From: an uncultured bacterium
GTDB lineage: Bacteria; Omnitrophota; Omnitrophia; Omnitrophales; Abzuiibacteriaceae
Assembly: GCA_964387845.1 (NCBI GenBank)
Contig: CAYLXA010000011.1
Coordinates: 1-64,000, forward strand
DNA: 64,000 bases
Reading direction: 5' to 3'
Program-made: the position numbers and the translations under genes
Notes under the pieces: model-generated
Databases searched by the model: none
Told to the model about the DNA's origin: nothing
What the model saw: the letters and a program-made list of their open reading frames with translations, nothing else
Shown here: positions 6,101 through 55,430 of the stretch, piece after piece
How the letters are laid out: every line of letters starts with the position of its first letter
Position numbering within the stretch: position 1 is the first letter of the stretch

Positions 6101-9100
6101 ATGAAGCCGCAAAAGCATCTGAATCCGACCACGTTTTCGATATTTTAAAATCGTTTATGGATAGAGGCTGGAGCGTGGTCGCGACAGACCGGTATCGCGA
6201 AGAGCGTGATGCAGCTCACTTCAACGTTGCCCAGGGCGCCGAAATGAAATTAAAAAGCAAGGTGCTCAGGCAAGCCATCAAATTTTTGGCGTCAAACCGC
6301 CCGATCCGTATTCCTTCAAAAGACTGGTCGCGGGGCAAGCGGCATCAGCGCATGTCCGGCCTCTTGGTTCCTGTTCCGGACGAACCGATTGTCGTGCTTG
6401 TACACGGGCCGGAACTTTGGATGGTGAAAGACATCATGCCCGGCACTTTTTCGGGAATCGTATCGGTTGGTGATTATAAAGATGCTTCTAACGGTGTCTA
6501 TTTAGACAAACTCATTGACGCCATCGAAAAGAAAGCCAACGGCCGGATTGTTCAGCGTGAACCGTCACGTTCTGAGCTGCGGCATGGGCCTGAAGATTTT
6601 GTCAGAGACGAAACCGCGCGAATGGTTCGTGAGCTGGTCGGCACTTTCTACAAAAAATCTGTTTATCCTTTCGCGCACGAAATCGACAAAGGCAATATAC
6701 GCATTGAAGATCAAATTTTAGAGGAAGCGGCCCAGGCGGGGCTTTTCGGCCTCGCGATTCCGGAAGAGTTTGGCGGCTCGGGCCTCAGCCCTATTTTAAA
6801 AATCATTGCCGACATCATCGGCTGGTATATCAATCCTTCCGTTGCGCTTTCGATCGGTGTTCACAATAGCGTTGTCAAAGGGCCGATTCAAGATTACGGA
6901 ACGGAGGAGCAAAAAAAGAAATATCTCACGAAACTCGCGAGCGGTGAATTGATCGGCGGCTATGCGCTCACAGAATTGGAAGCCGGGTCCCAGGCATTGA
7001 GCAAGCGGTTTCCACTCCAGACGACCGCTGTCCCCGTGGAAGTCGACGGAAAACAATACTACAAACTAAACGGAACCAAACGGTTTATCACGAACGCCCG
7101 TTTTGCCGGTGTTTTTGTGGGTTTTGCGATGCTGGGTGACGAGCGAAGAGTATTTATCATTGATCGTGACTTGGAAGGTGTTTCGGTCGGAGAGGACGAG
7201 CAGAAAAGCGGTTTAAAAGGTTCTTCGACCGCGGATTTAATTTTGCAAGACGTTTTGGTTCCGGCTGAAAATCTGATCCCGGGAGACGGGATCAAAATCG
7301 GCATGTCTACCATGAGCCAGGGGCGCCTCAGCATCGCCGCAAGCGCTTTGGGCGGAAGCATGCGGATTTTTGATGATACGCTGGAATATTCGAAATTGCG
7401 CAAACAATTCGGCGGGCCAATTTGGCAATTCGGCGGCGTTAAGCAAACTCTGGCGGAAATGGCCGCGGATCTTTACGCGCAGGAGTCCGTTGTTTATGCG
7501 GTCGCATCTCTGCTGACCGAAGGCAAAGTGAATGCGGCATTTGAATCGGCGGTTGCCAAAGTTTTCGTGACGGAGAAATTTAACCACATTGCCCAGAAGG
7601 GCGTCAAAACACACGGCGGCGCCGGTTACATTTCGGATACGCCCACGGCGCGCATCGGCCAGGATGCGATTGTTACTGAAATTTTTGAAGGCATGAATGA
7701 TGTGCTTTATTCGAACGTGATTGCAGCCCTCTATCTTAAGAAATTGATGACGGAAGGCAATCAGGTGCTGAACATCTCGGATTACGGCCAGTTTTATCCG
7801 GAAATCCAAAAACTTTCGAGTTTAATCGGGCAAACCGGTAAAGTCATTCTCGGAAAATTCGGAACGCTCACGCCGGAGAATCAAGATGAGTACATGGCAT
7901 TCGGGAAAATGGCCTCCGAATTTTACGCAATTGTGTCCGCAGTGCGCAGGACCCGGAAAATAACATCAGAAATTAATCCGGATGACCCCAAACTGAAGCA
8001 TTTTTTGGATGTCACACGGCTGGTTGTAGCGAGAGGCACTAAACGGATCCGCGATGAGGCGTCTCATTTTGTAGATCCGGATGTGTTCGGCGTTTCTTCC
8101 GACCAGCGTAAGTATTTTGAATTAACCCGCGGCATTGCGGAACATCTCGTTGTCAATCCGCCGAAACGCATTGTTGAATTCAACGCCTCAAACGAAAGTC
8201 AGTCAAGCCGCGCCGAGCTTCGTCTCGATCCCGTTTATCTTGTCGATTTGACAGTGTTTGGCTTGCTTGCCATTTTACCGTCTTGGTTTGCGCTTAAACT
8301 GACAACCGAGCGCTATGCTAAGCGAACGATCGATCAGCTATATTCGCCGGCGGTTCAAGAAGAGATGGATGCGAATCGTTCTTTCAATGTCAATTTTTTA
8401 ACATTTTTTTATGACCGGGCAGTTCATTGGGTCCGGTTTCTTGTAATATCATTTTTGCACGGTTTTAGTGCATGGGTAGCCAGCTATTACGCTTTCGCCA
8501 TGTATTATCCGGCGGCTTCAATTTTTTGGCCTCTTGTTGCGGCTGCGGCTGCATTTGGCGCTTCCGGTGTTTCTTTATGGATTCGCGACAAAAAGCAGGT
8601 GCGGCAAAAAATAACTGTGGCTGCACAAATTCCGGCCAAGCAAATTCACGGAAAGTTTGAGCTGAATTTTGATTTGGTTTTTGGCTTTGATTTACGCGAA
8701 CTTTTAGACGGTAAAACAGGGGAAGAGCAAGCGCTTCAAAATTTACGGGCAAAAGTAGAAGAGCAGGTGGAGAGGATCGCCGCAAACAAGGGCGCCGTTC
8801 CCGCCGAGGTGGGAAAAGTTTTGGTTCCGGTGACGCCTGAAAGCTTTGCGAGCACAGGACCCAATTTCAAAGTGGAGGGCCTTCGCGGCCAGTTTACAGT
8901 TCGCATCCCTCGAAGCAATATCAATACTATGCACTCTTTTCCGCTCAATGTTACGTCCGTCTATTTGGGCGGCCAAAAAATCGCGGTCGGCACCGTGTTT
9001 TTCGAGAAAAATAAAGATGCGCGCTCAGAGTTGAGGTCCGAGGGTGCAGCAAAAAGTGCTTTTTCGAATTTCTTAGCGAGTGTGCCGGAAGATTCTGAAA

Positions 9101-12100
9101 AATGGAAGAGTTTTTTGCGCGAGCAGCTAGCGCTTTTTGCAGCCGAATGGGTTAAGCTGCCAGGGGAATTGCAAAATTTTTTCCCGGAAGAAACGCATTT
9201 ATTTCAGGAATTTACGGCTGATAATATTCCGGCGGTCAATTTAGACAATTTCTTTAAATTAGCTGCCGTGCGCGATGCCGTGGTTGATTTTATGCCGAAG
9301 CTTAACCAAAGCAGCTCTCTTCCGCAAAATGCCGAAGCCGTTCAGATCCCGGGTTTTAACGGTGCGCTTCTGGATGGCTGGGTGATTCGCGCGGCTGACA
9401 GCAAGCAAGAAAATCATCCGGCGTTTCTGATTTTGCCGCCATGGGGCGATGATATCTCAAAATACGGAAAGCTCGCCGAACTTCTTCATCAAGAGTTTCC
9501 ATCTTTTCATGTGATTGGTTTGGATTACACCAAAGATCCAAATCTCGAAACCATTTTGAATACCGGCGGAATCGCAGAAAGTTTTGATATTGAAGCGGTG
9601 ATTCGCGCGCTTTCCAGATTTTCCGATTTGAAGATTGATCCGTCCAAAATCACGGGCATCGGTTATTCGATGGGCGCTAATACTTTGGCGATCCTGCAAA
9701 AGCGCACCGGGCTTTTGTCTCATTTTGTGCCAATCGGGCTGCACGACAGTTACGCCTCCGTGCTTGCCGGCTATTATGAGAATGTCCATATTCCGCGCAT
9801 TGCAAGAATCGTTACACGCCGGGGCTATTCATTCATTGATTGGACTGACCCAATGATACGAGAGCATGCCAAGCGATTATTGATTGAAGCCAGGCTTCGA
9901 ATGAACCAATTTACTATCGCAAGAAGGGAAATTCCTGTTAAGCCGGAGGATGATCCGTTTTTAGATTTGGCAGAAACCGCATCATCGCTCCAAATTCCGG
10001 TTCATTTTGTATTTGAAGAGGAGTCTGATCTGTTACAGGAAAGCGTTCGTGATTTTTACCGCGCTCTGGCAGGGCAAATGAATGAATCAGGCCGAACGGC
10101 GCAATACAACACCTATCCCGGAAAGCACAACAAGATTGATCCGGCATCTTTGGTCAGCGATCTCAAAACTTTTCTGACCTCTCGTTCCGAATTGACTTCG
10201 GCTCGAGCGGAGCCGAAGACTATTTCGGCATCATCGCAGAGCGCGATGATGTCCGAATTGCGGAAGCAAAATCATTTTATTTTGTTTGTGGCTGGGAGCA
10301 TTTTGTTTTGGGCGGGCTGCTTAATGACGGAGCAAAAACCTGTCAGCGAAATGCCCGCGGAAACGCCAATTGAACAAATCGCCGAAACTTCCGAACCGGT
10401 TACAAACGCACCGGCCGATGATATAAGTGAGCCTGCCGAGATTCAGAAGCAGCCGCGCGCACCGCCCAAAAGTGAATTTGAGACTTTGCTTGAAGCTTTA
10501 GAAACAGGAAATGACGACGAGCGCTGGGATGCCGCCAAGACGCTCAGCCGTTCCGCCAACTCTGCCGCAAGCGGCACATTTTTAAAAGCGCTTCAGGATT
10601 CCAATAGTTTGGTCCGCCGCGAAGCCATTATTTTCTTCCGCTATCACCATGATCCGCGAGCACCGAAAGTTTTGATCGAGCTTTATCGCAAAGAACTCGA
10701 TTTGGGCATTCGATCCGACATTGTCGAAACATTGGGAATTTTGCAGAGCGCCGAAGCCGTTTCGTTTCTAATCCAACGGATCAAACGGGAAGACGGCGCC
10801 GCTTTCTATGTTTTAAAACGCGCGTTGGTCCGTATCGGCGTTCAAGCGATTGAGCCGCTTATCGATGCGATTCGCTTTGAATACAACAAAGAATTGGCCG
10901 CTAAATATGAAGAAACCCTTCGGGAAATCTTCAGAAATCCGGACGCTGCCGAACAGCGCAAAAAAGCGGAGAAACACTGGTACGAAGCCGTCCGCCGCGC
11001 CGCGCTCGGAATTACCAGCCGTTCAGAGCTTCGTAAATTTCACGAACCAAAACCGCAAGCAAGCGGCGTGGACGCGGGCATTTATATTGAAGGGTTAGAG
11101 AAAGTAATTCGGGCGAATCGGTTCAGCGCGCTTCGCTATGACCGAACGAAAAAGCGCTGGGTCATGACTTCCATTTTGATAGATGGAAAGAAGCGCAAGG
11201 GCCTTCTGCTGTCTAGGAAGCAACTCGATGGAGTTAATCTTGCTTTTAGTACGCTTCATCAAAAACTACAAAAGGAAATGACGGAAAAGTCGAATGCACG
11301 CATCATTTTTGTTAAAGGTTTGATGCCTATATTGGGAAACCACATGCCTTGGGTTCAGCGCCCGGCCGGCCTGAGCGGTTTTTCGAAGCCGGATTTTATT
11401 CTTGACCGCAATGCTGCTTACAATCCTCTGGCTTTGTTGGATCAATTTGAATATGAAATCCGGCGTAAGCGCTTGATGGCCGGTCAATTTTCTCCTGCGG
11501 AGAAAAGAGAATTAATCAGAAACCCAAACACTTTTGATTTGCGCGTTAAATTCAAGCAGGTTTATCTGGAAGCTCATGCTCAGTTGATTCAGGATAATGT
11601 TATAAATTCCAGAGATGAGCTTTCGTTCTACGATTCAACCCAGAGAACGCGCCTGCTTGAGCTTGTGATTTTGCAAGCTGCGCAGGAAGCGACCCAAGTT
11701 CGTTACCGGTCTGTCGAAAACGCTTTAAAAGCACTTGATGAGGCAGCCAAGGATGGAAATCATTCAGGACATCAAGTCGCAATTGGTATCTTGGCCTTGC
11801 ATGCATCTGACATTGCAGCCCGATTAATTAAAAAATCCGATAATGAGTCAATCAAGATCGCCGCACTGGACTATATTGCATCGGCGCTTATTGATCAAGA
11901 TACAGCTTCCCCAGCAATAGAGATTACTGGTGGCCTTCATCATGAAATCCGAAATATTCTAACCAATTCTAAAAACCCCCGGCTTAAAGCTGCCGCACTT
12001 CAACTTTTCACAGTCTTGATTTATGTTCAGCTAGTAGATTCGAACGAGAAGCTTAATGCGCTTGAATATCATTATGCCAATCTCGAACTGGTGATCAGAA

Positions 12101-15100
12101 GCCTGATTCCAACTATCCGTCAAATGGCGCTGACGGAGAAGAACGCGCTCTTAAGATCTCATGCCATTATTTTCTTTCTCGCTCTGTCTTTGCGGTATCC
12201 TCAGTTCAGAGGAAGCCGAAGGACGTTAAAACGCTTAGCGCCCGAATTGGAGCGGTATGTGCTCGAAGGGAAGGATTCCAACATGACTCAAACGGGTATT
12301 TTAGTTCTTGAGCATCTTTGGCGTCAGTTAGACAAAAATCCGGAGCGCTTCGAAACATTTATCAGCCGGTATATTTTCGGAGAAAACCATGCGCCGACCG
12401 GAATTCGGCGTACTGAAACTTATTGGGCGGGCAAATTAGCGCACTCCGAAATCTCGGAAAAGATGCCGACTCTGGACCGGATTCTGGCTAACAATGATCA
12501 GTTATCTCGTTTTCTCACTTTTCTTTCCGTTATGCGGCTTGCTTATCCTTATAGCATGATTAATGGTAGTTATGAGCGCCCGATTGCTTGGGCTAAGAAG
12601 AACCAAAAGATTTTTAAGCTCGACGAGCTCCGCATTGCGTTTGTCAGTGAATCATACCGCCGCCATATTATTTTTACGGAAGACCAAAGTCTTGCACTCG
12701 AAATAAAATTCCCAGGCGAACGCGCTTCAAGCGGCGATGTTTCGAAAATTCACGTGACATTGGCCGAAAAGTTGCGGCAGCAGCCTAAGGGTGAAACGGT
12801 GGTCAGCGAACCACTCTTTTTTATAGGTTTGAAAGGGTTATTCAATCTTTATGGCCCCCGGGAAACCTCGATTGAATATAAAGAATTTCCTTTGGGAATT
12901 GTGGGGTTCCGGTATCAAGACTCGAAACGTTTGCGTAATGTGCTTGAAGATAAAGAATTGTGGCAAGCATTTGTTGAGGAAGCTTATGGGCCATCGGACA
13001 AGTATCAACAAAAGGCCTATGTGCGGATTGCTGCGGATTTAATTATTTTTGCACTCAAGATTCATGAATTGGGTTATCAGGCCAGCACGCGCCGCCTAAC
13101 GGATCTTCACCTTGAAAATTTTGCGCTGTTGCCCGACGGCCACGTTTTTTCCGTGGCTGATTTCGGAATTTATTCCCGTAGCGGCAGCCGTTTAACCAAA
13201 TTCCGTAAAAGAAAAGAAACAAGCGGCCTGCTTGCTGCATTAACGGCTTACAAAAGCAGTCTCATTAGCGCTTGGGACAATCCGACATTTGTCATGGAGG
13301 TCGTTGACGCTGTTTTGGTTAAACTTTTAACAGGCGTTACCGATCCGGCAGAAAGAACAGAAATCATTCTGCGTGTCTTTGGGGAAGTGCGGGATATTTT
13401 TGAAAAAGTCGGCATTTCACCGCTATTCGAGGATGCGCTTGTGCGGGCTTGGGATGTTAATCAAGAGCCGGATGGATATGAAGTCCGTCAAAAAATTGCA
13501 AAATCCATCATTTCCAGATCGGTTATCGCTATTGGAATCGCATCCGATGCGTGGTCTGCGCTTCGATACGACAAAGATCAAGAAAGATTGATTACATCAC
13601 CGCTTCCGGACGATCTTGTGCATCGATTCTGGGATCATCCGGAATTGTTGCAACCGCTAGAACCGGTATTGCTAAGTGATAAAGAAGTTAATCTTCTCGA
13701 TAAAGCTTTCAAGCTTCTGCCTGAAGTGGATCGAAACCAGTTTACGTCGGATCCTAATTCTATGATCGTGTTAATGAAAGGAATGGATGCGCACATTGCA
13801 GAATCAACGATTGATTTCAAAAGATTGACGAACCCGCACGCCTATCACGACTTGGTGTCACCGCGTTTCTTTTTTGACCAGCGGCTGATCAAAGACCCGT
13901 TTGAATTCATGAAAATACTTCACAACGAGATCAAACTGCGGAATGCGATTCTTCAGAGTTTAACCGAAGATGAAATCGCGATGCTAAAAAACCGTCATTT
14001 GCCGGCTGAGCTTCAATCGAAAATCATGAAAAAAACACAGGAAACCAGAGATTTGCAGTGGGACACTTACTTTCGATCAGCCGGAAAGCAAGAACCCAAT
14101 CAAGAACAATTAAGTCTTTTGGAGGACCTTATTGTCTATGGTGCGCAGGATCATTTGCATAAAACATTCGAGTCTCCCGCAGAAGCTTTGTTGGCATTAG
14201 CAAAATCATTAGGAGAATTGAAAGGCGCTCAAAAGAAACGAACTCAAGATTTTCTATTTTACATTCACAACGAAATTTTATCTTTGATTCTGCTCAATCC
14301 AGATGCGGACTTAGATTTAAGAATATCGGCGGTTGTCTATGAGATAGAAAAGGCCAAGTTAGAATCGTTTGCGCTTTTGACTGCCGAGCCATTGGCACGG
14401 CATTTGGAGCGTATCTACGACCGGCATAAAAACGTCCGGCTGCGTGTTGTAATTCTTCGCTTCCTAGCAATTGTTCATGAGCAAGTTGAGCGGGAGATGA
14501 GAGATAATTTAAAGTCAGGGGACAATTTAGTTAAAACTCGTTACGTCGTCGAATCGATTGCCTGGAGGATGGCAGTCGGCGTTTTGAAAAACAATAAAAG
14601 CAAACGTGTCGAAAAGGAGATCGTTAAACTTTTGCTGCAGCTTTTACGGCCTTATGCCGCGGTCTCTCAAAAACCGAATCATGGGCAGTTACGTCTGCTT
14701 CTTGAGGAGGCTGTGATTTACATAAACCAGAATATCGAAAAAGATCCTTCAAAGGAAAAAAACAAGCTGCTTGCCCTGGCAATTTTAAGCAGGCAGATTC
14801 CGATTGCAAGCGACTATTTGGAAGCTGCGCTATTGCGGTATATTTTCGATTCAGATGACATTAAAGGAATACGGATGCGAAAGTCTGGCTATCCGGCGAG
14901 CGATGCTATTCAGCCTTTTGAACAAAGCATGCCCACGCTTATTCAAATATTGAAAAACAAGCAGTATTTAGCGCGTTTCATGGTTGCGCTCAGTATTTTG
15001 CGTGAAGCTTTTCCGTACCACGTCCCCAATTCGCATGATTTTAATGAAGACCTGCTTGAAACCGTAGAAACCAGTGGCGCCGTGCGGCTGAAAGAGCTCT

Positions 15101-18100
15101 TAATCGCGCCGCTTATGCATGAATATTCAAGCCACTTGGTTTCCACAGAGGACGGCCGCAATGTTTTGCGGCTGGTGATTCCGGGCGATTCTGTGCGGCA
15201 TTTTAGTAACCATCTTCGGAAAAATCATGTAGGCAAAAGAAATTTATTATTTTTTATTCCCATCCTCGGCGTCCCATTTTTGTATGGAGCTCTGGATTCC
15301 CATCGACTTTCGGGGTTTGCGGGTTACCGGGAACGCGCCAGTGAAGGTTTGACCATGAAAGAAATCAGAAGGCGTGAAATGATGAATGATCGGATTCCAT
15401 CGTTGGTCAGGACGATCTTGACGCACTTTGGCCAGAAGTATGATGCATCGGCGCTTCATGAAGCATTGGTTCGTCAGGATGTCAATCAGATCACAAAACT
15501 CATCTTCAGCGATGAATATTATCAAGATTTCAAGCAATGGCTGCTCAATTATATGCGGAACGTTTTTCATATGGAAGAAAGCGAAGTTCCGGATGCCTTC
15601 CGGCGTGCTTTAAAACAATACTTTGAGAAGAAAGAATCGCTAGGCCGCACAGAAGCAGCCGTAAAAAAATCAGCAGAAGGAAGCGACGCTCAATCAAAAT
15701 CCCGTTCAGAGCTCAGGGCAGGTGAGTTGTCCGCGGAAGTCCAATTGGCCAATGAGATCACCAAAGCCGTCACAAATTTTGCATTGTGGAAATCATCGGA
15801 ACACAAAATGTCGGTCTCTCGTCAGCAAATGCAAGGCTATAGAGATGCGCATCGGGAAGCGGATGCTTTGGTTAAGGCCGGAATCAAAACTTTGTTACTT
15901 TCCAGGGAAAGGGCAAAGCTCATTCAAGCTCGAACTGCAGTTCAACAGGCTATGAACCAGAGCGGCGTGACGGCAAAGGCAAAGAAAAGATACGAGTTTT
16001 ATATTGGGTTGCTCAATCAAGCCACCGAAAATCGTTCCGTCCCGACTCACAATAAAACGCCGGATCAGACTTCCGTTGAATATCCTCGCAATTCTTCAAT
16101 GAAAGCCAGAGCCGAGTTGCGTTCGAATCAAGCGTATCTTTGGAAATCGAAAATTACATTGGAATTGGCAAGCCCGGCCGGGAAGCCGGACGCTCCTAAA
16201 CGGTATATATTTGAAATAGAAGGCCGCAAATTCATGACGTTCGATGATCCTGATTCGGCCATTGAAATTGTGGGCGAAAGAGCGACCGATCTTGGTGTGC
16301 ACGATCCTTTTCTCAGTATTATGATCACCGAATTGCTGCCGTGGATTTTTGTTGAAAGCTTCAAAAATAGGAGGGTACGCCAACCAGACGGAAATTTTGC
16401 GCTTCAATTTCCGGAACTTGATTCCGGAGAAAAAGATATATTGGAAAGCGAAGTGCAGGTTGCTTTTGGTATTGGGAGTCAGCCGAGTTATGTTGCGTTT
16501 GGCCCCCGATGGTATCGCTTACCCGAGCGCGAATCGATTAATCAGATTGTCAATCAGGCCACCGATAGTTTTGCAGGTGATGATTCAATCGAAAAGCGTG
16601 CAGTGCCGGCTTTGGTGACTTTGGTCAAAGTTTTGAATGACGAAAGCCGAAGCGATGTTGAAACTTACATCGAACAGAAATTTGGTCCGCATGAATTCTT
16701 AAAACGTATGCTGACTTCCGAGAGAGTTACAAAAAACACTTTTTTTGATTTTGTCCGCCGTAATTTATTTTTGGAGCGGATCGGTGAAAAGTGGTTTCCC
16801 TACGGCCTATATACAGATACTAGGCGGTCTGAGCTAAGGCATGATTTTCGCTTTCTCCTAGGAATAGAGCGCGAAGAAGAAATGCAGAAAATCTTCGACA
16901 AGATTAAGCGGGGAGATTCCAACGACATCGAGCAAGCCTTAGGTTCCTTGATTGATTTTATCGGTACGATTCCCAATTTTTTAGATGACCGAAAGTGGGC
17001 GGAATTAAGGAAGTGGATTGCCCGGAATGTGGTTGGCAGCATCAATGTTTCATCTTTTAATACAGCCGGTATTCAAGATTTACTTATCCGTTTTTACAAT
17101 ATCCTGCCGGGCCCTACGACATTGGCTCTGTCTGCTTCGCTGGATGATGAAACCGAATTTGGTGAGCGCATATTTATATTAACTTTCTTATTAGCGGGTA
17201 TTCAAGAATCCGAAAACATAGCAAAGGTTGTATTGCGCAATCGTGTTTTTCAACGAGAAGCAAGCCGGCCAAAAACCGATAATGAAGCCCAGCTTTTTAA
17301 TCAAATTCACCAAGCAATCGATAGAAAAATTAAAGATCAGGCTTCGCCTAGCCCGGCTGCCGGGGAATTATCCGACCCACGATCTGAGCTTCGGATTGCG
17401 TTTACGGATGAGCTTCATCCGGAATTGTTAAGCAGGGAATTTGCAGACGAAAATTCGATCCGAAACAATTTAATAGAGGTTATGAGCGAGCCCAAGACTC
17501 GTGTGGAACTGTTGGGAATTAAAACAGGCGAGTTCATTCAGCGCACGATGGGCAAGATGCAGGTTGTTTTCGAGAAAACCGGCGAACGGGTCGATTCCCT
17601 GACGGGTGAACATGTTATAGAAATCGAATTTAATGTGATTGCGACAAAAGTTCATACCGAGTCCGGAACTATCGAAGCGCGAACGAAACCAAACAGCCGG
17701 TTGTTTGAAGGGCTAAATGCCGGTATCGTGCCGGAAATTAAAATTCGTTTTAACACGGCAATGACGAACGGGATTCGTGCGGTCAATGCGCGCCACGGGG
17801 AAATGGACGAAATTTTCGCTTCTCAAGTTCCGGATTTGGCGAGCGGTTTGGAACGTGTCGGACCCATTGCGGGCCATGATCTTATTTTCGGTGAGGATGG
17901 ATCGCCGCTTTTTGCGGAATATTTTCTTAAAAGATTCGGCGTTCTGGCCGTCGTTACGAGTTCACAAGCTGAAGAAGACTTTTTAGATCCGATCCGGGAT
18001 GACTTACAAAACGGGGAAGTGTTGATTGTCGCTCAAAGTTTTGAAGAAGCGCGCTTGGAACTTAGGAAAAGGGGATTTACGAATCAATTATTGCTTGTTT

Positions 18101-18249
18101 CCGAGTTTGATTTCGTTTCTGATTCGGTTAAGTCACGGGCCTATCAAATGAAAGTCTTCAGCAGGTCTGAAATGCGGCGGTTGCTTTCGGTTGTGGAAGA
18201 GGCAGCCATTCAAATCCGTTCGGAGCTCCGGACAGCCGTTTCGGCGTAA
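172..18249 (+). CDS. giant multi-domain membrane protein (6025 aa): N-terminal signal/TM, HEAT-like repeat arrays, acyl-CoA dehydrogenase-like domain, alpha/beta-hydrolase domain, APH/kinase-like motif, multiple TM clusters; recurrent SRSELR motif
   Basis: Single uninterrupted ORF from the six-frame track. Domain-level similarity in one frame throughout: ACAD motifs (PEEFGGSGLS, LNGTKRFITN, FEGMNDV), hydrolase GYSMG nucleophile elbow, HEAT-like AAAAYA repeats. The likely true start is ATG at 181, preceded by GGAAGGA; the TTG at 172 is the track start. A hydrophobic N-terminus (IIFLKVVAITLCFTFSVTSTIAYG) suggests a signal peptide or anchor. Stop is TAA at 18247-18249. Confidence 0.8.
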   Translation: MEGMSNYPPARIMRSQIIFLKVVAITLCFTFSVTSTIAYGDSSVIIESFKHNAWHVTPAFPGNKPAQLLDFARKADLVVASGRAELRAKELQATSLKLQSDPSALKVLKPEAEESRSELRNEEGELMKRPRARRDAREDAAEIEPAVETEAVVQAEDAEINYNHFAQRIINEPVGKLLIDKSMVEQIGKLNVPQFKQMFYMDVGALNAYFVLYTMIKENRELNPAIHDHILTEEAKEREKTAAADKAVQAKAQEQEVTARDTASKVKLVEKKRAKSQKKEAGIDTIERVQLAPVEATKLTQGLFRRTLSKYKQLWKQIRQNNLDKKDRALVMATNIMLLGGAAFSTMLWVSTDFGKYAAWFGYLSTVFLSEAGLPLFVNFVGTIDEMVLDVKAVNATERFIESLDRFEEFFRRMPLNPITEKGLIKGIRSLPAEIQLELKKISEGKDWDYRNLEKWYEIRRNQVIRILRKADLVIPGELENAPAWQEEENGGNPRVHRGKLLKLVSEAVNDSRNANRVEEYRKWAEKYKKARTLLRKIKGLNEEEMHLLAVQLTTTSFYGHPELEKRLVRAFSRIEKRQKNADQAVFLDREEGSSYTFSAQGLVDYVAARFRLSESDYDLEIDPVPPDFVNQVRIRSELRISFLQKLAIITTLLTAFFIPNTSKASTIPVGFMPPIDSAYLHSEGVREIRDDEKNVWQYQKYSNLDILTAAAVLNATRESPNASVDAGVIGVFRNERKPLEERILAATVLMLKQKDFKKEAGDFLVKILHDETKPGLDRTMAAAAYARLIDESSHKKTHKFAMDYLVRVLYDADKPYAERLYAASAYALFKAGRDYIDGPNYKTTIEYAMSILVSALHDEEAPVSHRLIAAAAYAGLDDMNFGDTHEYAIRYLKQVYQNPKSQFSNRVTAAAALLAADEYDSEDKFLALMLRLPSFDKKGNVVNERTPVDLLDAIQNGALTDAGAHAVKEKLKTILDEGRLNHDVGLLVRYAEVLENPTAVDFAEIVKLVSAVLPDEENRLEFWFDIAKKVQDPEKFNFNSYVLKNLLTDPVLDPAQVPDQEIMEFLIKNHPDQELRKQLKVRMKESQWQMVKGTQVVYLALVFMVGVGISIQQMKARRRSELRSILIELWNSVQTIARDPIYGPSYAICFGLMAYMVIKFGPRRGSFFPGSSRNIERMIRAKFKNASPSDLDQARTIVKELRDKIEKNLERPHFEIRYVLPAIIQSANSVEQLRKFVESLGVWKDAGWFDRLIGGVLPLSLVGRLGEAPLLVGNPYEKPAIEKAMKGIARAIQSSDEFREGFETVVIFFEKLKQATARKKYFRNESIISPQVAWEELLQKAHQIRMQHGDFTVSFQPEEREIINNRYTDKVLQHQVISVNEPSVASARSVPTHNKMPGTSIDGKVGTAQTSDENSSGSSMKVRAELRQASSRMRAKQERLFTERAASRRIARIDRWFQHYHDDYDMNWNPEFFASKHETFLDRIKTQLRDFEIENEAIDIAIEQSMSILIAGVPGGIIRAFLKRFTNMVHRHIYGPVAVEEINDRMRHFKERIDRSLESAASLDERRRLMKGYRLKHGYLWIDNVRTSFEELPVDHSTASTVKVIGPREMKIHQIAGYFENILHRKRGLLTDQKDHEILKFLVGRLTDSDPWVVKAAVWGINRIADRMDPVLKQFILERYYEILSGNHSEVARGSIARSIREVFNPQSLDVALEMLKTEQTEWVQTYLVEVIQTIVSQSDKKSLRYKHSRDIIEQLLEKAVGDPDAKRSHIMLRVGSIKALAELLWYDPEVLDRLKEMVLTEPDSTIQEAAMWALARLHVATPEGMAQIDSLLETLTAYLESSHAGRKNVFLEQYARQLLFWLQRLSSNRDLKAKILSMKRTNPDFSLTEKIILGALNQIEKYTKRLKLLEHANWIFELFQSAIFRRARSGSARTLTAYHDRLKAQAKRDAVYFSGRAMNPVILLDIDAILPKEGDEAAKASESDHVFDILKSFMDRGWSVVATDRYREERDAAHFNVAQGAEMKLKSKVLRQAIKFLASNRPIRIPSKDWSRGKRHQRMSGLLVPVPDEPIVVLVHGPELWMVKDIMPGTFSGIVSVGDYKDASNGVYLDKLIDAIEKKANGRIVQREPSRSELRHGPEDFVRDETARMVRELVGTFYKKSVYPFAHEIDKGNIRIEDQILEEAAQAGLFGLAIPEEFGGSGLSPILKIIADIIGWYINPSVALSIGVHNSVVKGPIQDYGTEEQKKKYLTKLASGELIGGYALTELEAGSQALSKRFPLQTTAVPVEVDGKQYYKLNGTKRFITNARFAGVFVGFAMLGDERRVFIIDRDLEGVSVGEDEQKSGLKGSSTADLILQDVLVPAENLIPGDGIKIGMSTMSQGRLSIAASALGGSMRIFDDTLEYSKLRKQFGGPIWQFGGVKQTLAEMAADLYAQESVVYAVASLLTEGKVNAAFESAVAKVFVTEKFNHIAQKGVKTHGGAGYISDTPTARIGQDAIVTEIFEGMNDVLYSNVIAALYLKKLMTEGNQVLNISDYGQFYPEIQKLSSLIGQTGKVILGKFGTLTPENQDEYMAFGKMASEFYAIVSAVRRTRKITSEINPDDPKLKHFLDVTRLVVARGTKRIRDEASHFVDPDVFGVSSDQRKYFELTRGIAEHLVVNPPKRIVEFNASNESQSSRAELRLDPVYLVDLTVFGLLAILPSWFALKLTTERYAKRTIDQLYSPAVQEEMDANRSFNVNFLTFFYDRAVHWVRFLVISFLHGFSAWVASYYAFAMYYPAASIFWPLVAAAAAFGASGVSLWIRDKKQVRQKITVAAQIPAKQIHGKFELNFDLVFGFDLRELLDGKTGEEQALQNLRAKVEEQVERIAANKGAVPAEVGKVLVPVTPESFASTGPNFKVEGLRGQFTVRIPRSNINTMHSFPLNVTSVYLGGQKIAVGTVFFEKNKDARSELRSEGAAKSAFSNFLASVPEDSEKWKSFLREQLALFAAEWVKLPGELQNFFPEETHLFQEFTADNIPAVNLDNFFKLAAVRDAVVDFMPKLNQSSSLPQNAEAVQIPGFNGALLDGWVIRAADSKQENHPAFLILPPWGDDISKYGKLAELLHQEFPSFHVIGLDYTKDPNLETILNTGGIAESFDIEAVIRALSRFSDLKIDPSKITGIGYSMGANTLAILQKRTGLLSHFVPIGLHDSYASVLAGYYENVHIPRIARIVTRRGYSFIDWTDPMIREHAKRLLIEARLRMNQFTIARREIPVKPEDDPFLDLAETASSLQIPVHFVFEEESDLLQESVRDFYRALAGQMNESGRTAQYNTYPGKHNKIDPASLVSDLKTFLTSRSELTSARAEPKTISASSQSAMMSELRKQNHFILFVAGSILFWAGCLMTEQKPVSEMPAETPIEQIAETSEPVTNAPADDISEPAEIQKQPRAPPKSEFETLLEALETGNDDERWDAAKTLSRSANSAASGTFLKALQDSNSLVRREAIIFFRYHHDPRAPKVLIELYRKELDLGIRSDIVETLGILQSAEAVSFLIQRIKREDGAAFYVLKRALVRIGVQAIEPLIDAIRFEYNKELAAKYEETLREIFRNPDAAEQRKKAEKHWYEAVRRAALGITSRSELRKFHEPKPQASGVDAGIYIEGLEKVIRANRFSALRYDRTKKRWVMTSILIDGKKRKGLLLSRKQLDGVNLAFSTLHQKLQKEMTEKSNARIIFVKGLMPILGNHMPWVQRPAGLSGFSKPDFILDRNAAYNPLALLDQFEYEIRRKRLMAGQFSPAEKRELIRNPNTFDLRVKFKQVYLEAHAQLIQDNVINSRDELSFYDSTQRTRLLELVILQAAQEATQVRYRSVENALKALDEAAKDGNHSGHQVAIGILALHASDIAARLIKKSDNESIKIAALDYIASALIDQDTASPAIEITGGLHHEIRNILTNSKNPRLKAAALQLFTVLIYVQLVDSNEKLNALEYHYANLELVIRSLIPTIRQMALTEKNALLRSHAIIFFLALSLRYPQFRGSRRTLKRLAPELERYVLEGKDSNMTQTGILVLEHLWRQLDKNPERFETFISRYIFGENHAPTGIRRTETYWAGKLAHSEISEKMPTLDRILANNDQLSRFLTFLSVMRLAYPYSMINGSYERPIAWAKKNQKIFKLDELRIAFVSESYRRHIIFTEDQSLALEIKFPGERASSGDVSKIHVTLAEKLRQQPKGETVVSEPLFFIGLKGLFNLYGPRETSIEYKEFPLGIVGFRYQDSKRLRNVLEDKELWQAFVEEAYGPSDKYQQKAYVRIAADLIIFALKIHELGYQASTRRLTDLHLENFALLPDGHVFSVADFGIYSRSGSRLTKFRKRKETSGLLAALTAYKSSLISAWDNPTFVMEVVDAVLVKLLTGVTDPAERTEIILRVFGEVRDIFEKVGISPLFEDALVRAWDVNQEPDGYEVRQKIAKSIISRSVIAIGIASDAWSALRYDKDQERLITSPLPDDLVHRFWDHPELLQPLEPVLLSDKEVNLLDKAFKLLPEVDRNQFTSDPNSMIVLMKGMDAHIAESTIDFKRLTNPHAYHDLVSPRFFFDQRLIKDPFEFMKILHNEIKLRNAILQSLTEDEIAMLKNRHLPAELQSKIMKKTQETRDLQWDTYFRSAGKQEPNQEQLSLLEDLIVYGAQDHLHKTFESPAEALLALAKSLGELKGAQKKRTQDFLFYIHNEILSLILLNPDADLDLRISAVVYEIEKAKLESFALLTAEPLARHLERIYDRHKNVRLRVVILRFLAIVHEQVEREMRDNLKSGDNLVKTRYVVESIAWRMAVGVLKNNKSKRVEKEIVKLLLQLLRPYAAVSQKPNHGQLRLLLEEAVIYINQNIEKDPSKEKNKLLALAILSRQIPIASDYLEAALLRYIFDSDDIKGIRMRKSGYPASDAIQPFEQSMPTLIQILKNKQYLARFMVALSILREAFPYHVPNSHDFNEDLLETVETSGAVRLKELLIAPLMHEYSSHLVSTEDGRNVLRLVIPGDSVRHFSNHLRKNHVGKRNLLFFIPILGVPFLYGALDSHRLSGFAGYRERASEGLTMKEIRRREMMNDRIPSLVRTILTHFGQKYDASALHEALVRQDVNQITKLIFSDEYYQDFKQWLLNYMRNVFHMEESEVPDAFRRALKQYFEKKESLGRTEAAVKKSAEGSDAQSKSRSELRAGELSAEVQLANEITKAVTNFALWKSSEHKMSVSRQQMQGYRDAHREADALVKAGIKTLLLSRERAKLIQARTAVQQAMNQSGVTAKAKKRYEFYIGLLNQATENRSVPTHNKTPDQTSVEYPRNSSMKARAELRSNQAYLWKSKITLELASPAGKPDAPKRYIFEIEGRKFMTFDDPDSAIEIVGERATDLGVHDPFLSIMITELLPWIFVESFKNRRVRQPDGNFALQFPELDSGEKDILESEVQVAFGIGSQPSYVAFGPRWYRLPERESINQIVNQATDSFAGDDSIEKRAVPALVTLVKVLNDESRSDVETYIEQKFGPHEFLKRMLTSERVTKNTFFDFVRRNLFLERIGEKWFPYGLYTDTRRSELRHDFRFLLGIEREEEMQKIFDKIKRGDSNDIEQALGSLIDFIGTIPNFLDDRKWAELRKWIARNVVGSINVSSFNTAGIQDLLIRFYNILPGPTTLALSASLDDETEFGERIFILTFLLAGIQESENIAKVVLRNRVFQREASRPKTDNEAQLFNQIHQAIDRKIKDQASPSPAAGELSDPRSELRIAFTDELHPELLSREFADENSIRNNLIEVMSEPKTRVELLGIKTGEFIQRTMGKMQVVFEKTGERVDSLTGEHVIEIEFNVIATKVHTESGTIEARTKPNSRLFEGLNAGIVPEIKIRFNTAMTNGIRAVNARHGEMDEIFASQVPDLASGLERVGPIAGHDLIFGEDGSPLFAEYFLKRFGVLAVVTSSQAEEDFLDPIRDDLQNGEVLIVAQSFEEARLELRKRGFTNQLLLVSEFDFVSDSVKSRAYQMKVFSRSEMRRLLSVVEEAAIQIRSELRTAVSA
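2395..2950 (+). other. tandem ~47-aa HEAT/ARM-like repeats (motif R..AAAAYA.L.D....YA..YL..VL.D...P, 4-5 copies) inside giant ORF
   Basis: Repeated protein motifs AAAAYARL / AASAYALF / AAAAYAGL / TAAAALLAAD at regular ~46-47 aa spacing in the translation. Confidence 0.5.
4336..4455 (+). repeat. intragenic direct repeat copy 1 (encodes SVPTHNKMP...SSMKVRAELR) in giant ORF
   Basis: About 90% nucleotide identity to 16034-16122 over ~90 nt (cgttccgtcccRactcacaataaaaYgccgg ... cagacttccgWtgaa ... ttcttcaatgaaagYcagRgccgaRttgcg). Copy 1 has a ~30-nt insertion. Confidence 0.75.
6655..7745 (+). other. acyl-CoA dehydrogenase (ACAD)-like domain embedded in giant ORF
   Basis: The translated segment KSVYPFAHEIDKG...FEGMNDV carries canonical ACAD N-, middle- and C-domain motifs: GLFGLAIPEEFGGSGL, GGYALTELEAGSQ, LNGTKRFITNA, GGAGYISD, FEGMNDV. 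It begins directly after SRSELR copy 4. Confidence 0.75.
9350..10140 (+). other. alpha/beta-hydrolase fold domain (serine hydrolase, GYSMG nucleophile elbow at 9661-9675) embedded in giant ORF
   Basis: HPAFLILPPWGDD...HVIGLDY...GIGYSMGANTLAIL... followed later by Asp/His candidates (HFVFEEESD..., PGKHNK). Typical order of an a/b hydrolase with a G-X-S-X-G motif. Confidence 0.6.
10500..10870 (+). other. PBS-lyase/HEAT-like repeat module in giant ORF
   Basis: ERWDAAKTLSRS...LVRREAIIFF...PKVLIELY...IRSDIVETLGIL...AVSFLIQRI resembles E-Z type HEAT repeats. Confidence 0.4.
12990..13180 (+). other. protein-kinase-like (APH/LPS-kinase/ELK superfamily) catalytic-loop + DFG motif in giant ORF
   Basis: ...ADLIIFALKIHELGYQASTRRLTDLHLENFALLPDGHVFSVADFGIY. 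DLHLEN (13102-13119) matches the HGDLHPGN/HRDLKPEN catalytic loop (D...N). ADFG (13156-13167) matches the DFG metal-binding motif at canonical spacing. Confidence 0.4.
16034..16122 (+). repeat. intragenic direct repeat copy 2 (encodes SVPTHNKTP...SSMKARAELR) in giant ORF
   Basis: See copy 1 at 4336-4455. Near-identical nucleotide stretch despite otherwise unrelated flanking sequence. Confidence 0.75.
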
Positions 18250-18254
18250 GATTA

Positions 18255-18332
18255 GTGGTAAGTGGTAAGTTGTAAGTAGTAAGTGATAAGCAATTCGAAT
18301 AACTTAAAACTTACCACTTATCACTTACAACT
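18255..18332. terminator. heptamer-tandem inverted-repeat hairpin (gtggtaa gtggtaa gttgtaa gtagtaa gtgataa ... cttaccacttatcacttacaac) between convergent genes; probable bidirectional terminator/structured element
   Basis: Five tandem GTNNTAA heptamers at 18255-18290, a ~20-nt loop, then the reverse-complementary degenerate heptamers at 18310-18332. It lies 6 nt after the giant ORF stop and 5 nt before the stop of the convergent minus-strand gene. Confidence 0.55.
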
Positions 18333-18336
18333 GAGA

Positions 18337-18666
18337 TTACCGACGCGCTTCAACTGCAGTCAATCGATTGGCAATAACGCCAATATTTTCAGTCAATTCA
18401 CTGCGTGTGTCTTTCAAGTCTTTTGTGAGTTTCAAAAGCCCATCTTCAAGTCTAACGACTTTACTTTTTACGACATCAATGCCTAACTCTACCAAGTCTA
18501 AACGGCGATTAACGCCATGGAGCTCCGTTTCGACATTGGCTAGCCGCCTGTCTGTTGATACTTGGCTTTCGGCAATGAGATTGATTTTTTGATCCATCGA
18601 CTCGAGCAAAGTACCCACTTCAGTGACGGTGAACTTATCTGATTTAATAGCTTTTTCTTTTTTCAT
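18337..18666 (-). CDS. small coiled-coil hypothetical protein (109 aa)
   Basis: ORF with a strong SD (RC of 18670-18684 gives AAAGAGGAGAATGTT-ATG). Heptad-rich sequence consistent with coiled coil. Contains TRSELT, resembling the giant-protein motif. Confidence 0.55.
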   Translation of the reverse strand: MKKEKAIKSDKFTVTEVGTLLESMDQKINLIAESQVSTDRRLANVETELHGVNRRLDLVELGIDVVKSKVVRLEDGLLKLTKDLKDTRSELTENIGVIANRLTAVEARR

Positions 18667-18917
18667 AACATTCTCCTCTTTGGTTTGGCGTGGAGGAGAG
18701 GAGAGGTTTATAACAGAAAAGCCGGGCTATGTCAATGAAGTAAATATAGAAATATAAAAATTAATATGATTAATATTTATTTTTAATCCTGGACGGCCTT
18801 GCGCAACAAATTTCGTGCTTTTTTTGTCAATTTTAGGTAAAATAACTTCTCTTTCGGCTTCCCCTGATAGTTTCGTATGGGTTATGTCTCAGTAGTTTGT
18901 GCGGTTTTTTAATTGAT

Positions 18918-18976
18918 AAATTCAAAATTCAAATATCAAATCTCAAAATTTTGAATTTTTAATTTTGAAATTTGAG
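18918..18976. repeat. left arm of ~55-bp perfect inverted repeat flanking permease gene
   Basis: The reverse complement of 18918-18976 (…ttcaaaattcaaatatcaaatctcaaaattttgaatttttaattttgaaatttgag) matches 19905-19960 essentially perfectly. Confidence 0.8.
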
Positions 18977-18994
18977 TTTACGGTCATTAATTAC

Positions 18995-19897
18995 ATGAAC
19001 GGTATTAAAAGCAGGACCAAAGAAGCGATTGCGGCGTATTTGTTTCTTGCGCCCAACCTGATCGGCTTCCTGATCTTTACTTCCATTCCGGTCTTAGCAT
19101 CCCTCGTCCTCAGTTTTATGAAGTGGGACCTTTTTTCACCCCCTCAGTTTGTCGGTTTTGAAAATTTCAACGCGCTGTTTCACGATTCCTACTTTTGGCA
19201 ATATTGCTGGAACACGGTTTATTTGATGATGGCAATTCCGTTCAGCATTGCCGGCTCGCTGATTTTGGCGCTGGCGCTGAATCAAAAGTTGAAAGGCATG
19301 ACTTTCTTCCGGACTCTTTACTTTTTGCCGACGATTTGCTCCGGCGTTGCGATTTATATGCTGTGGCGGCTGGTTTATAACCCGGATTTCGGCATTTTCA
19401 ATATGCTGATCGCCAAATTCGGCGATTTGATCGGCGTGCCGCTTCAGGGGCCGTTTTGGCTGACGGATGAAGCATGGGCAAAGCCGGCGCTGATTATCAT
19501 GAGCGTGTGGCAGACGGTCGGCGGCTACAACATGATTTTGTATTTGGCGGCGCTGCAGGGCGTTCCGCGCGATTTATATGAAGCGGCAGAAATCGACGGT
19601 GCTAACAGCTGGCAAAAATTTTGGGCTGTGACGTGGCCGCAAATTTCGCCGACCACTTTTTTTATTGCCACGATGTCCGTGATCGGCGGCTTTCAGGCTG
19701 GATTCGATCCGGCCTACATCATGACGGGCGGCGGGCCGAACGGTTCAACCACGACCGTGATTTATTACATTTTCAACAACGCCTTCAAGTGGCATCAAAT
19801 GGGTTATGCGGCTGCCATTTCGTGGGTTTTGTTCCTGGTGATTTTTGTGGTGACGCTCGGTAAGTGGAAATTATTCAGTAAAACAGTGCACTATTAA
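18995..19897 (+). CDS. sugar ABC transporter permease (MalF/UgpA-type, binding-protein-dependent inner-membrane component)
   Basis: Track ORF 18965-19897. The likely start is ATG 18995 (MNGIKSRTKEAIAAYLFLAPNLIGF...). Contains the EAA-loop region (EAAEIDGANSWQKFWAVTWP) typical of MalF/UgpA. Confidence 0.85.
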   Translation: MNGIKSRTKEAIAAYLFLAPNLIGFLIFTSIPVLASLVLSFMKWDLFSPPQFVGFENFNALFHDSYFWQYCWNTVYLMMAIPFSIAGSLILALALNQKLKGMTFFRTLYFLPTICSGVAIYMLWRLVYNPDFGIFNMLIAKFGDLIGVPLQGPFWLTDEAWAKPALIIMSVWQTVGGYNMILYLAALQGVPRDLYEAAEIDGANSWQKFWAVTWPQISPTTFFIATMSVIGGFQAGFDPAYIMTGGGPNGSTTTVIYYIFNNAFKWHQMGYAAAISWVLFLVIFVVTLGKWKLFSKTVHY

Positions 19898-19900
19898 CGC

Positions 19901-19962
19901 AAATTCAAATTTCAAAATTAAAAATTCAAAATTTTGAGATTTGATATTTGAATTTTGAAATT
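19901..19962. repeat. right arm of ~55-bp perfect inverted repeat (intergenic between the two permease genes)
   Basis: Reverse complement of the 18918-18976 arm. Confidence 0.8.
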
Positions 19963-19967
19963 AAATT

Positions 19968-20849
19968 ATGAAATCAAAAGACTCCGCAAGGCATCAGCTG
20001 ACGGCTCGCAAAAAGAAGCCGCTGACGATTAAGGACCTCGGGATTTATATCGTGCTGATCATTGGCGCGATTACGATGGTGGCGCCTTTTCTGTGGATGA
20101 TCACGACATCGCTCAAAAATCCGGGCGATGTGTTTTCCTACAAGAAAATTTGGTGGCACGACTGGGTGCCGATGTCGTTTGTGTGGCGCAATTATATTGA
20201 AGCGTGGAATGTCGTGCCGTTTGCGCGCTTCTATTTAAATTCGATTTTGGTTGTTTTGCTGACCACATTCGGGCAGGTGGCGACGAGCGCGATGGCGGCT
20301 TATGCATTTGCGCGTCTCCAATTTCCCGGGCGCAATCAAATCTTTTTTTCCTATTTGGCAACCATGATGATCCCGGGTGCCGTCACGATGATCCCGGTTT
20401 TTATTTTGCTGCGTCAGCTCGGATGGATTGATACGTACAAGGCCATGATCTTGCCCGGCATTTTTACGGCGTACGGAACTTTCATGCTCCGGCAATTTTT
20501 CCTGACGCTGCCGAAAGACCTGGAAGATGCGGCGATGATTGACGGCTGTTCTTATTTTGGAATTTTCTGGCGGATTTTGCTCCCGCTTTCGCAGCCGGCA
20601 CTCGCAACGCTGACGATTTTTACGTTCATGGGCTCCTGGATGAATTTCATGTGGCCTTTGATCGTCATGAATTCCGAAGAAAAATTTCCGCTGCCGGTGG
20701 GCTTGGCGTATTTCCAAAGCTTGCACCATACGGATTGGACATTGTTGATGGCAGGTTCTGTGATGATGATTCTGCCGATTCTGCTTGTCTTCATGTTCGG
20801 CCAGCGCTATTTCGTGGAAGGTATTAAGCTGACGGGAATTAAAGGTTGA
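19968..20849 (+). CDS. sugar ABC transporter permease (MalG/UgpE-type)
   Basis: 293-aa ORF with 6 predicted TM segments and an EAA loop (EDAAMIDGCSYFGIFWRILLP). Confidence 0.85.
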   Translation: MKSKDSARHQLTARKKKPLTIKDLGIYIVLIIGAITMVAPFLWMITTSLKNPGDVFSYKKIWWHDWVPMSFVWRNYIEAWNVVPFARFYLNSILVVLLTTFGQVATSAMAAYAFARLQFPGRNQIFFSYLATMMIPGAVTMIPVFILLRQLGWIDTYKAMILPGIFTAYGTFMLRQFFLTLPKDLEDAAMIDGCSYFGIFWRILLPLSQPALATLTIFTFMGSWMNFMWPLIVMNSEEKFPLPVGLAYFQSLHHTDWTLLMAGSVMMILPILLVFMFGQRYFVEGIKLTGIKG

Positions 20850-46647: not shown

Positions 46648-46778
46648 CAGTATCTAGTATCTCGTATCTAGTATCTAGTTGAACTTATTATTATATGAAT
46701 AGATATTGTTTCTTTCACGTTTTCCTTCCGTTCAATTCTTTACTAGATACTAGATACCAGATACAAGATACGAGATAC
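46648..46778. repeat. large imperfect palindromic element built from tandem GTATCT-N heptamers (arm 46648-46678; inverted arm 46743-46778)
   Basis: Arm agtatct agtatct cgtatct agtatct; inverted arm actagat actagat accagat acaagat acgagat. Same architecture as 18255-18332 and 55337-55414. Confidence 0.6.
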
Positions 46779-46787
46779 GGAAATAAC

Positions 46788-46861: not shown

Positions 46862-46865
46862 ATTT

Positions 46866-46958: not shown

Positions 46959-46961
46959 AAT

Positions 46962-55329: not shown

Positions 55330-55336
55330 CAGCGAT

Positions 55337-55414
55337 GCTTCAAGCTACAAGACTCAAGCTTCAGGCTTCAAGATAGTGCGTTTCTGCTTGTAGCTTGTAG
55401 CCTGTAGCTTGCAG
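55337..55414. terminator. heptamer-tandem inverted-repeat hairpin (cttcaag ctacaag actcaag cttcagg cttcaag … cttgtag cttgtag cctgtag cttgcag) immediately after the leuS stop
   Basis: Same architecture as 18255-18332 and 46648-46778; 13-nt loop. Confidence 0.55.
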
Positions 55415-55430
55415 TTTGAAATTTGAAACT

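Follow-up and report, generated by a model that had tools for sequence, protein, structure and literature searches.

The stretch of DNA analysed here, referred to as the window, comprises the first 64,000 nt of contig CAYLXA010000011.1 (assembly GCA_964387845.1) and derives from a member of the uncultured phylum Omnitrophota, whose bacteria are ultrasmall. It encodes two consecutive permeases of an ABC transporter, permease 1 and permease 2, and the gene for the first of these is bracketed by an inverted repeat: read on the + strand, a 55-nt arm in the leader of permease 1 is the exact reverse complement of a 55-nt arm in the spacer between both genes (Table 1). A preliminary description of the sequence had reported an exact inverted repeat of about 55 nt that encloses only the first permease of the pair. 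Both statements were confirmed, the coordinates to within 3 nt, with the permease 1 coding sequence (CDS) inside the repeat and permease 2 outside of it. Extended without gaps, the inverted match covers 71 nt at 93% identity (18917-18987 / 19893-19963). The gap between arm and start codon amounts to 19 nt for the upstream arm and permease 1, and to 8 nt for the downstream arm and permease 2. A chance match can be dismissed, since by our own arithmetic the probability of 55 identical nt is ~3e-17 even if each base matches with a probability of 0.5, while 64 kb offer ~2e9 position pairs.

The low-complexity A/T character of the arms, also described before, holds as well and can be given more precision, as the arms show a 7-nt period. 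Each arm is itself a quasi-palindrome (35 nt, ~80% self-complementary) with a local hairpin of -14 to -16 kcal/mol (z about -3). The halves of an arm consist of tandem 7-nt units, namely AAATTCA, AAATTCA, AATATCA and AATCTCA, followed by TGA and then ATTTTTA, ATTTTGA and AATTTGA. Tandem Repeats Finder and our own period scan gave 4.6-4.7 copies of the period-7 unit per arm with 80-84% matches. Because the arms are quasi-palindromes of 7-nt units, the upstream copy (U) and the downstream copy (D) are 78% identical in direct and 100% identical in inverted comparison, and the asymmetries of the arms demonstrate that D is truly inverted. Within the window the palindromic 12-mer core has exact occurrences at these two sites only. 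Thus the preliminary description was right about the repeat itself, but it missed that the arms are hairpins, that they are built from 7-nt units and that the genome contains a class of such hairpins.

The history of both copies could be followed in close relatives, which were recovered by look-ups of exact proteins. In a sister strain (L001/L002) the permease 1 gene differs from that of the window by 6.5% of its nucleotides and by 20% at 4-fold sites, whereas the leader copy U differs by 1 substitution in 74 nt. According to our own binomial arithmetic, at most one difference in 74 nt has a probability of ~1e-6 at 20% divergence. The spacer of the sister strain harbours a different heptamer hairpin of 88 nt with AAATACC/AAATTCC units (-23.9 kcal/mol, z -4.3). 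It is weakly related to U and D, with scores of 23-24 compared to a shuffle mean of 6 +/- 2.4 (z~7), and it shares the left boundary GCAAAT with D. This divergence is far above neutral and indicates that the spacer hairpin was replaced and not altered by point mutation or drift. Moreover, D carries the U allele of the window strain (GAATTTTT, not GGATTTTT), and the copying event is therefore no older than the split of the two strains. As U was kept but the spacer hairpin is different in the sister strain, the perfect identity of U and D reflects recent templated copying.

Four sister species, each ~16% away in a star-like tree, have no hairpin at either site. Their permease genes are separated by 'TAA A ATG' in L088/89, by 1 nt in L090 and by 4 nt in L084-86 and L087, and their leaders retain the promoter-like box found upstream of permease 1 in the window. 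Since four sister species exhibit a spacer of 1-4 nt and a leader free of hairpins, both hairpins are derived insertions. The preliminary description had argued from perfect identity for recent duplication or conversion, and the different spacer of L001 together with the empty sites of four species supports this view. In a fifth species (L091/92) the leader is free of hairpins, but the 76-nt spacer contains one with 77% identity to U in an ungapped alignment of 62 nt. With spacer lengths of 70 nt in the window, 88 nt in L001, 76 nt in L091 and 1-4 nt in L084-L090, the spacer between permease 1 and permease 2 has repeatedly served as a site for A/T heptamer hairpins. The start of permease 1 also varies: lineages with the leader hairpin have an ATG without Shine-Dalgarno (SD) sequence, and the hairpin-free leaders of L084, L088, L090 and L091 have GGAG and a GTG start instead.

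The reading that we favour, and regard as rather probable, is that U and D are opposite copies of one A/T-rich hairpin with heptamer stems, and that D results from a recent, strain-specific overwriting. This Omnitrophota lineage would have accumulated a class of hairpin cassettes of ~60-70 nt in its intergenic spacers, where they would typically occupy the gap from a stop codon to the next start codon. U, in the leader of permease 1, would be older than the split from the sister strain, while the permease spacer would already have carried a related A/T heptamer hairpin, which in the window strain was recently overwritten by inverted U. The likely route would be gene conversion within the chromosome, or a template switch during replication, between nearby quasi-palindromes that are alike in either orientation, and the perfect core with mismatched, indel-bearing edges resembles the pattern that either process would be expected to leave. 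Given the conserved promoter-like box, both hairpins are presumably transcribed in one permease mRNA. During transcription and translation each copy would most likely form a local stem-loop that re-joins stop and start codons, or the terminating ribosome may melt the stem. Expression of the downstream cistron, which has no SD sequence, could thereby survive the insertion. A 59-bp duplex between U and D and the potential for RecA-mediated inversion would then be by-products of the new identity and not a conserved design. The perfect inverted repeat as such is probably transient, a by-product of minor functional importance, and more interest attaches to the class of heptamer-stem hairpins.

Several points weigh against this reading. 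Conversion or template switching is suggested by the pattern of two strains only, and these two do not polarise which spacer state is ancestral. Because all of the hairpins are quasi-palindromes, the orientation of those in L001 and L091 is barely resolvable, their direct and inverted scores against U being close (34 vs 28, 24 vs 19.5). TTAAT-like motifs flank both copies and leave room for an insertion of the transposition type, and the number of copies of the element was counted in the 64-kb window and in 975 kb of related DNA. Finally, the promoter, co-transcription and the balance of local and long-range folding are predictions, and predicted thermodynamics favours the long-range duplex over the local hairpins in the window strain.

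The permease locus is not the only one of its kind. A period scan of the window revealed 10 period-7 arrays compared to 0-2 for each other period from 4 to 14, and 9 of these 10 are members of inverted pairs. Beyond the permease pair there are at least three intergenic heptamer hairpins (Table 1). Since the unit sequence is different in each of them, they represent a structural class and not a sequence family. Such hairpins are found in stop-start, stop-tRNA and stop-stop spacers. The best orthologous loci belong to metagenome-assembled genomes of Omnitrophota (57-82% amino-acid identity). Of 38 other Omnitrophota loci, 8 contain period-7 arrays, but the 35 kb sampled of the sister species L084/L088 contain none. 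Among 42 control loci from outside the Omnitrophota, all but two of the period-7 arrays lie in heterocystous cyanobacteria and represent the STRR repeats known from that group.

Table 1 Features of the permease locus and of further heptamer hairpins; positions refer to the window
Feature	Position	Strand	Remarks
Promoter-like box ..TTCGTGC..TTTTAGGTAAAAT	18805..18843	+	near-invariant in six species ~16% apart
Upstream copy U, heptamer-stem quasi-palindrome	18917..18980	+	permease 1 leader; ends 14 nt before ATG; left arm (AAATTCA)-type x4, right arm (TGAATTT)-type x4; present in L001, absent in four sister species
Exact core, upstream arm of inverted repeat	18921..18975	.	exact 55-nt match
Permease 1 CDS, BPD_transp_1, MalF/UgpA-type ABC inner-membrane component	18995..19897	+	ATG without SD sequence; stop 19895-19897
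Downstream copy D, same hairpin inverted	19901..19963	+	fills 70-nt spacer between permease 1 and permease 2
Exact core, downstream arm of inverted repeat	19905..19959	.	left 27 nt and left junction also in L083
Permease 2 CDS, BPD_transp_1	19968..20849	+	ATG without SD sequence
Hairpin (AGTGGTA)x5 / (CTTACCA-like)x4	18250..18336	.	-32 kcal/mol, z -6.9; between stop of 6025-aa open reading frame (ORF) and stop of convergent 109-aa ORF
Hairpin (AGTATCT)x4 ... 60 nt ... (TACTAGA)x5	46649..46779	.	-44 kcal/mol, z -6.5; fills spacer between ORF stop (46642) and tRNA-Lys (46788)
Hairpin (GCTTCAA)x5 / (GCTTGTA)x4-6	55330..55430	+	heptamer stem; exact fill between leuS-like stop (55329) and GH42 ATG (55431)

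A second locus with precise empty and filled sites is the junction of the leuS-like and GH42 genes. In L213 and L214 the leuS-like stop directly abuts the GH42 ATG ('...TCTAA|ATG', 0 nt; position 3000|3001), while the window and L215 (2898-3000) contain an orthologous heptamer hairpin of 101-103 nt exactly between TAA and ATG. The two hairpins are 79% identical, compared to a divergence of 54% at 4-fold sites of the adjacent gene. All of the consensus pairs are kept (24/24), with 2 one-sided wobble changes and 0 compensatory changes, but as this count comes from two sequences only, pair retention is uninformative for or against a structure. Considering U and the leuS/GH42 hairpin together, the hairpins, once established, seem to be constrained and change more slowly than synonymous sites.

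These loci also allow for a more far-reaching view, which we consider rather unlikely, namely that the heptamer-stem hairpins are selected RNA 'spacer cassettes' that insert exactly at the junction of a stop codon and the start following it. A closed stem might keep stop and start adjacent, or the terminating ribosome might melt the 5' arm and free the start. Translational coupling of cistrons without SD sequence could be preserved or tuned in this way, and cassettes might be template-switched between nearby sites. In that case U and D would represent a copying event caught shortly after it happened, and their long-range duplex would amount to a natural experiment on operon looping. The hints for such cassettes are few: two loci with precise stop|start empty sites, the slow divergence of the hairpins, and the replacement of SD sequence and GTG by an ATG without SD sequence in the hairpin-bearing lineage.

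The preliminary description had offered further explanations for the repeat, among them a pair of oppositely inserted copies of a miniature inverted-repeat transposable element (MITE). Two independent, opposite insertions of a small mobile hairpin element, of MITE type or of the REP (repetitive extragenic palindrome)/IS200-IS605 type and mobilised in trans, would agree with the precise presence or absence in comparison to the sister species, with the occurrence of both orientations, and with the related hairpin in the same spacer of a more distant species that is absent from intermediate ones. We nonetheless judge such insertions to be unlikely, as the data did not support this claim. The 64-kb window holds only the two copies and no additional copy of the 55-mer, and the 975 kb of related DNA yielded none apart from the L001 orthologue. 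Searches with a 33-mer of the element returned 0 exact matches in the GTDB representative genomes and in JGI metagenomes, neither of which includes this species. Since the units differ in every other heptamer hairpin, there are no shared termini that a transposase could recognise, and no transposase or REP-associated tyrosine transposase (RAYT, TnpA_REP) gene was seen next to the locus. The TTAAT-like flanks have unequal distances in an A/T-rich context in which TTAA-type flanks are expected by chance, and one of these motifs coincides with ATTAA, the conserved context of the stop codon, so that they are unconvincing as target-site duplications. In addition, the left boundary GCAAAT of the L001 spacer hairpin favours overwriting over a new insertion. 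Long-range pairing within the mRNA, likewise proposed, fared better as far as folding is concerned. The duplex of U and D (59 bp) reaches -72.9 kcal/mol compared to -29.4 for both local hairpins in total, both the minimum free energy (MFE) and the centroid structure predicted for the 1.1-kb transcript 18880-19990 contain it, and the arms end 19 and 8 nt before two starts without SD sequence. If the duplex were functional, U and D would pair across ~930 nt and loop out the permease 1 ORF like an rRNA processing stalk, and could provide a substrate for RNase III or occlude the initiation regions, thereby setting the ratio of the two permeases. We think that such a function is quite improbable. 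The duplex is confined to the window strain and is therefore not a conserved design: for the sister strain, local hairpins are predicted to be more stable than long-range pairing (-38.4 vs -27.1 kcal/mol), and four sister species have no hairpins. Furthermore, co-transcriptional folding makes the upstream hairpin ~930 nt before its partner exists, and ribosomes on permease 1 would repeatedly strip the duplex. Given this folding order and ribosome traffic, we infer that the duplex is transient at most.

The perfect 55-bp arms, 929 bp apart, might also serve as a substrate for homologous recombination, and rare inversion is conceivable. It was suggested that they are the ends of an invertible or excisable segment, and recombination between them would flip permease 1 and switch the transporter off in a phase-variable manner. 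This possibility is hardly credible. There is no invertase or recombinase within 18 kb upstream, which are filled by a single 6025-aa ORF, nor in ~7 kb downstream (glmU-like, prs, L25, pth, S6, ssb, dnaB). The flipped DNA would be a CDS and not a promoter, the repeat is absent in relatives, and the window has the same orientation as an independent assembly and is collinear with ~40 relatives. That assembly (L083, Logan SRR15237816) is 100% identical to window positions 18300-19931 and hence confirms the whole upstream copy, the left junction and the first 27 nt of the downstream copy. Its ends fall in the loop of the hairpin at 18250 and at the centre of the downstream palindrome (19931), as would be expected if hairpins lower the coverage. 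For positions 19932-19959, the right half of the downstream copy, the window assembly is the only source. As 55 is a standard k value of metaSPAdes and coincides with the length of the exact repeat, the downstream copy or its right half could derive from a de Bruijn-graph path through upstream k-mers, in line with the end of L083 at 19931. Such an artefact is very improbable, because an assembler can mis-traverse but not create a shared k-mer, and because the unique flanks, the 3' end of permease 1 and the start of permease 2, are collinear with relatives. Mis-traversal would yield an inversion, and none was seen. L083 was assembled with k=31 and includes the arm asymmetries of the inverted copy. 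Recent overwriting of the spacer by inverted U remains the reading that we prefer to all of these.

To our knowledge, heptameric intergenic repeats are a decades-old oddity of cyanobacteria, Beggiatoaceae and Xanthomonas with no established mechanism of origin or function. In cyanobacteria, STRR of the type (TTTTGAA)3/(TTCAAAA)3 are located near starts or promoters of 21 genes of Nostoc (PCC 7120; bioRxiv 10.1101/2022.06.06.494920). TAACTGA repeats occur in Beggiatoaceae, cyanobacteria and Bacteroidetes; in Beggiatoaceae they lie a few nt from starts without canonical ribosome-binding site (RBS), and S1, Csp and CsrA were proposed as binders (PMC4679880). The GGGAATC repeats of Xanthomonas vary between close relatives and at times form inverted pairs (PMC4692102). 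These heptameric intergenic tandem repeats of the STRR type are the closest known kind. The hairpins described here share with them the 7-nt unit in 3-6 imperfect tandem copies, the intergenic location, often ending a few nt before a start without canonical RBS, and the variation of length and sequence among close relatives, with occasional inverted arrangements that can form stem-loops. The unit at the permease locus (TTCAAAA, or TTTTGAA in another register) is the heptamer reported in Nostoc, and the cyanobacterial control loci give the same period-7 signal. No report of heptameric repeats in Omnitrophota was found in the literature, and the phylum is new for such repeats. Differences exist as well: the arrays are nearly always paired in inverted orientation (9/10 arrays in the window vs ~4/28 arrays in the cyanobacterial loci), each locus has its own unit instead of one dominant genome-wide heptamer, empty sites at stop|start junctions are exact, and change is slower in the hairpins than at synonymous sites. 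The locus thus extends heptameric intergenic repeats to the Omnitrophota and offers clean comparative material, with precise empty and filled stop|start sites among species ~16% apart, a hairpin conserved well below the synonymous rate and a hairpin freshly copied in inverted orientation ~930 bp away. This material provides handles on the origin of the repeats, by slippage and template switching or by transposition, and on a possible role in translational coupling or mRNA stability.

Other systems resemble the locus in part. REP sequences and BIME, such as the intercistronic REP of malE-malF, are palindromes in ABC-transporter operons whose stem-loops can set the stability of a transcript segment, and here too an imperfect palindrome lies between ABC-transporter cistrons in both orientations, with transcription being predicted. 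However, REPs are a G/C-rich high-copy family with a conserved consensus of ~35 nt and a cognate RAYT, whereas the present element is A/T-rich with a 7-nt stem periodicity, lacks a conserved consensus and has two copies in 64 kb. Bacterial MITEs (Correia, RUP, ERIC/IRU, cyanobacterial Nezha) usually have 100-400 bp, are multicopy, possess terminal inverted repeats and target-site duplications, and are often co-transcribed with flanking genes. In common with them the element is a small non-coding hairpin insert with inverted ends that is strain-variable and occurs in either orientation, but neither the 64-kb window nor the related DNA (975 kb) contains dispersed copies sharing terminal inverted repeats. 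Nearby inverted repeats and quasi-palindromes are known to undergo gene conversion or template switching, as in the concerted evolution of tufA/tufB in Salmonella and in quasipalindrome-correction mutagenesis in E. coli. The homogenised core with edges of lower similarity (55/55, and 93% over the whole 71 nt) and the inverted arrangement of donor and recipient less than 1 kb apart would fit such events, a mechanism suggested here by the comparison of two strains only. Invertons (fimS, hin, promoter invertons of Bacteroides) consist of repeats of 10-30 bp with a nearby site-specific recombinase and flip a promoter. The inverted repeats around a ~1-kb segment are similar, but here a CDS is enclosed, no recombinase is nearby and the repeat is not conserved.

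Several minor observations concern the hairpin class. Some units recur at unrelated positions in different Omnitrophota genomes: CGGGACT (L008 1703, L012 1299, L017 116 and 1267), AGTGGTA/AGTGATA (L019 4203 and window 18254) and TAC(N)CCG (L011 2053 and L019 4422). This recurrence hints at preferred units rather than random products of slippage. Between tRNA-Lys and tRNA-Glu of the window (46862-46961) TCCGAAA repeats are accompanied by an inverted ATTTCGGA partner, and in the metagenome match L152 an (AATTTTT)n array is situated directly upstream of a tRNA-like sequence. A 19-mer of the right arm that is shared with the L091 hairpin matched at least 120 metagenome contigs; we rejected these matches as copies of the element, as they turned out to be (AATTTTK)n arrays of a generic kind from unrelated contexts (best local score 35/74). 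In other Omnitrophota the permease spacer carries hairpins with 6-nt units (AAGGCT/AAGGTT and complement; L035 3869-4003, L036 2513-2585, L032 699-784, L026 2415-2487), and the loop of the hexamer hairpin of L035 further encloses a heptamer array (AGTTATG). The spacer appears to have been colonised recurrently and independently. An Rfam search of 18900-20000 gave no relevant match at gathering or permissive thresholds, and that of the hairpin at 18250 only sub-threshold look-alikes of miRNA precursors.

The promoter-like box upstream of permease 1 has the form AACAAATTTCGTGC-N14-TTTTAGGTAAAAT, while the remaining leader is poorly conserved across the six species. Its spacing does not match the -35/-10 elements of sigma-70, and the box is probably the promoter of the permease operon and/or the site of a regulator. 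A scan for promoters and terminators returned consensus-level matches only, in numbers not above those in shuffles, and no intrinsic terminator at either permease hairpin. The leader also contains a candidate upstream ORF of 11 codons (18877-18912, MGYVSVVCAVF) that ends 5 nt before U. Its sole difference to L001 is synonymous (GCG/GCA), while frame and start are not kept in four sister species. The use of SD sequences is inconsistent among the other genes of the window.

Upstream of this box, a segment of 554 bp (18250-18803) is present in the window and in L083 but absent from the sister strain L001, in which the box follows the stop of the giant ORF after 26 nt. The segment comprises the AGTGGTA hairpin, a minus-strand ORF of 109 aa (18337-18666) and an A/T-rich stretch (18724-18800), and could represent a small gene cassette that is specific to the strain and has a hairpin at its border. 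The product of the 109-aa ORF had no match to a Pfam or NCBIfam family and is coiled-coil-like, and we rejected it as a candidate recombinase. Unusual giant proteins are known from the Omnitrophota, and the ORF preceding this segment (172-18249, + strand, 6025 aa) is of that kind. It contains a complete acyl-CoA dehydrogenase module amid HEAT repeats, with the N, middle and C domains at aa ~2147-2519.

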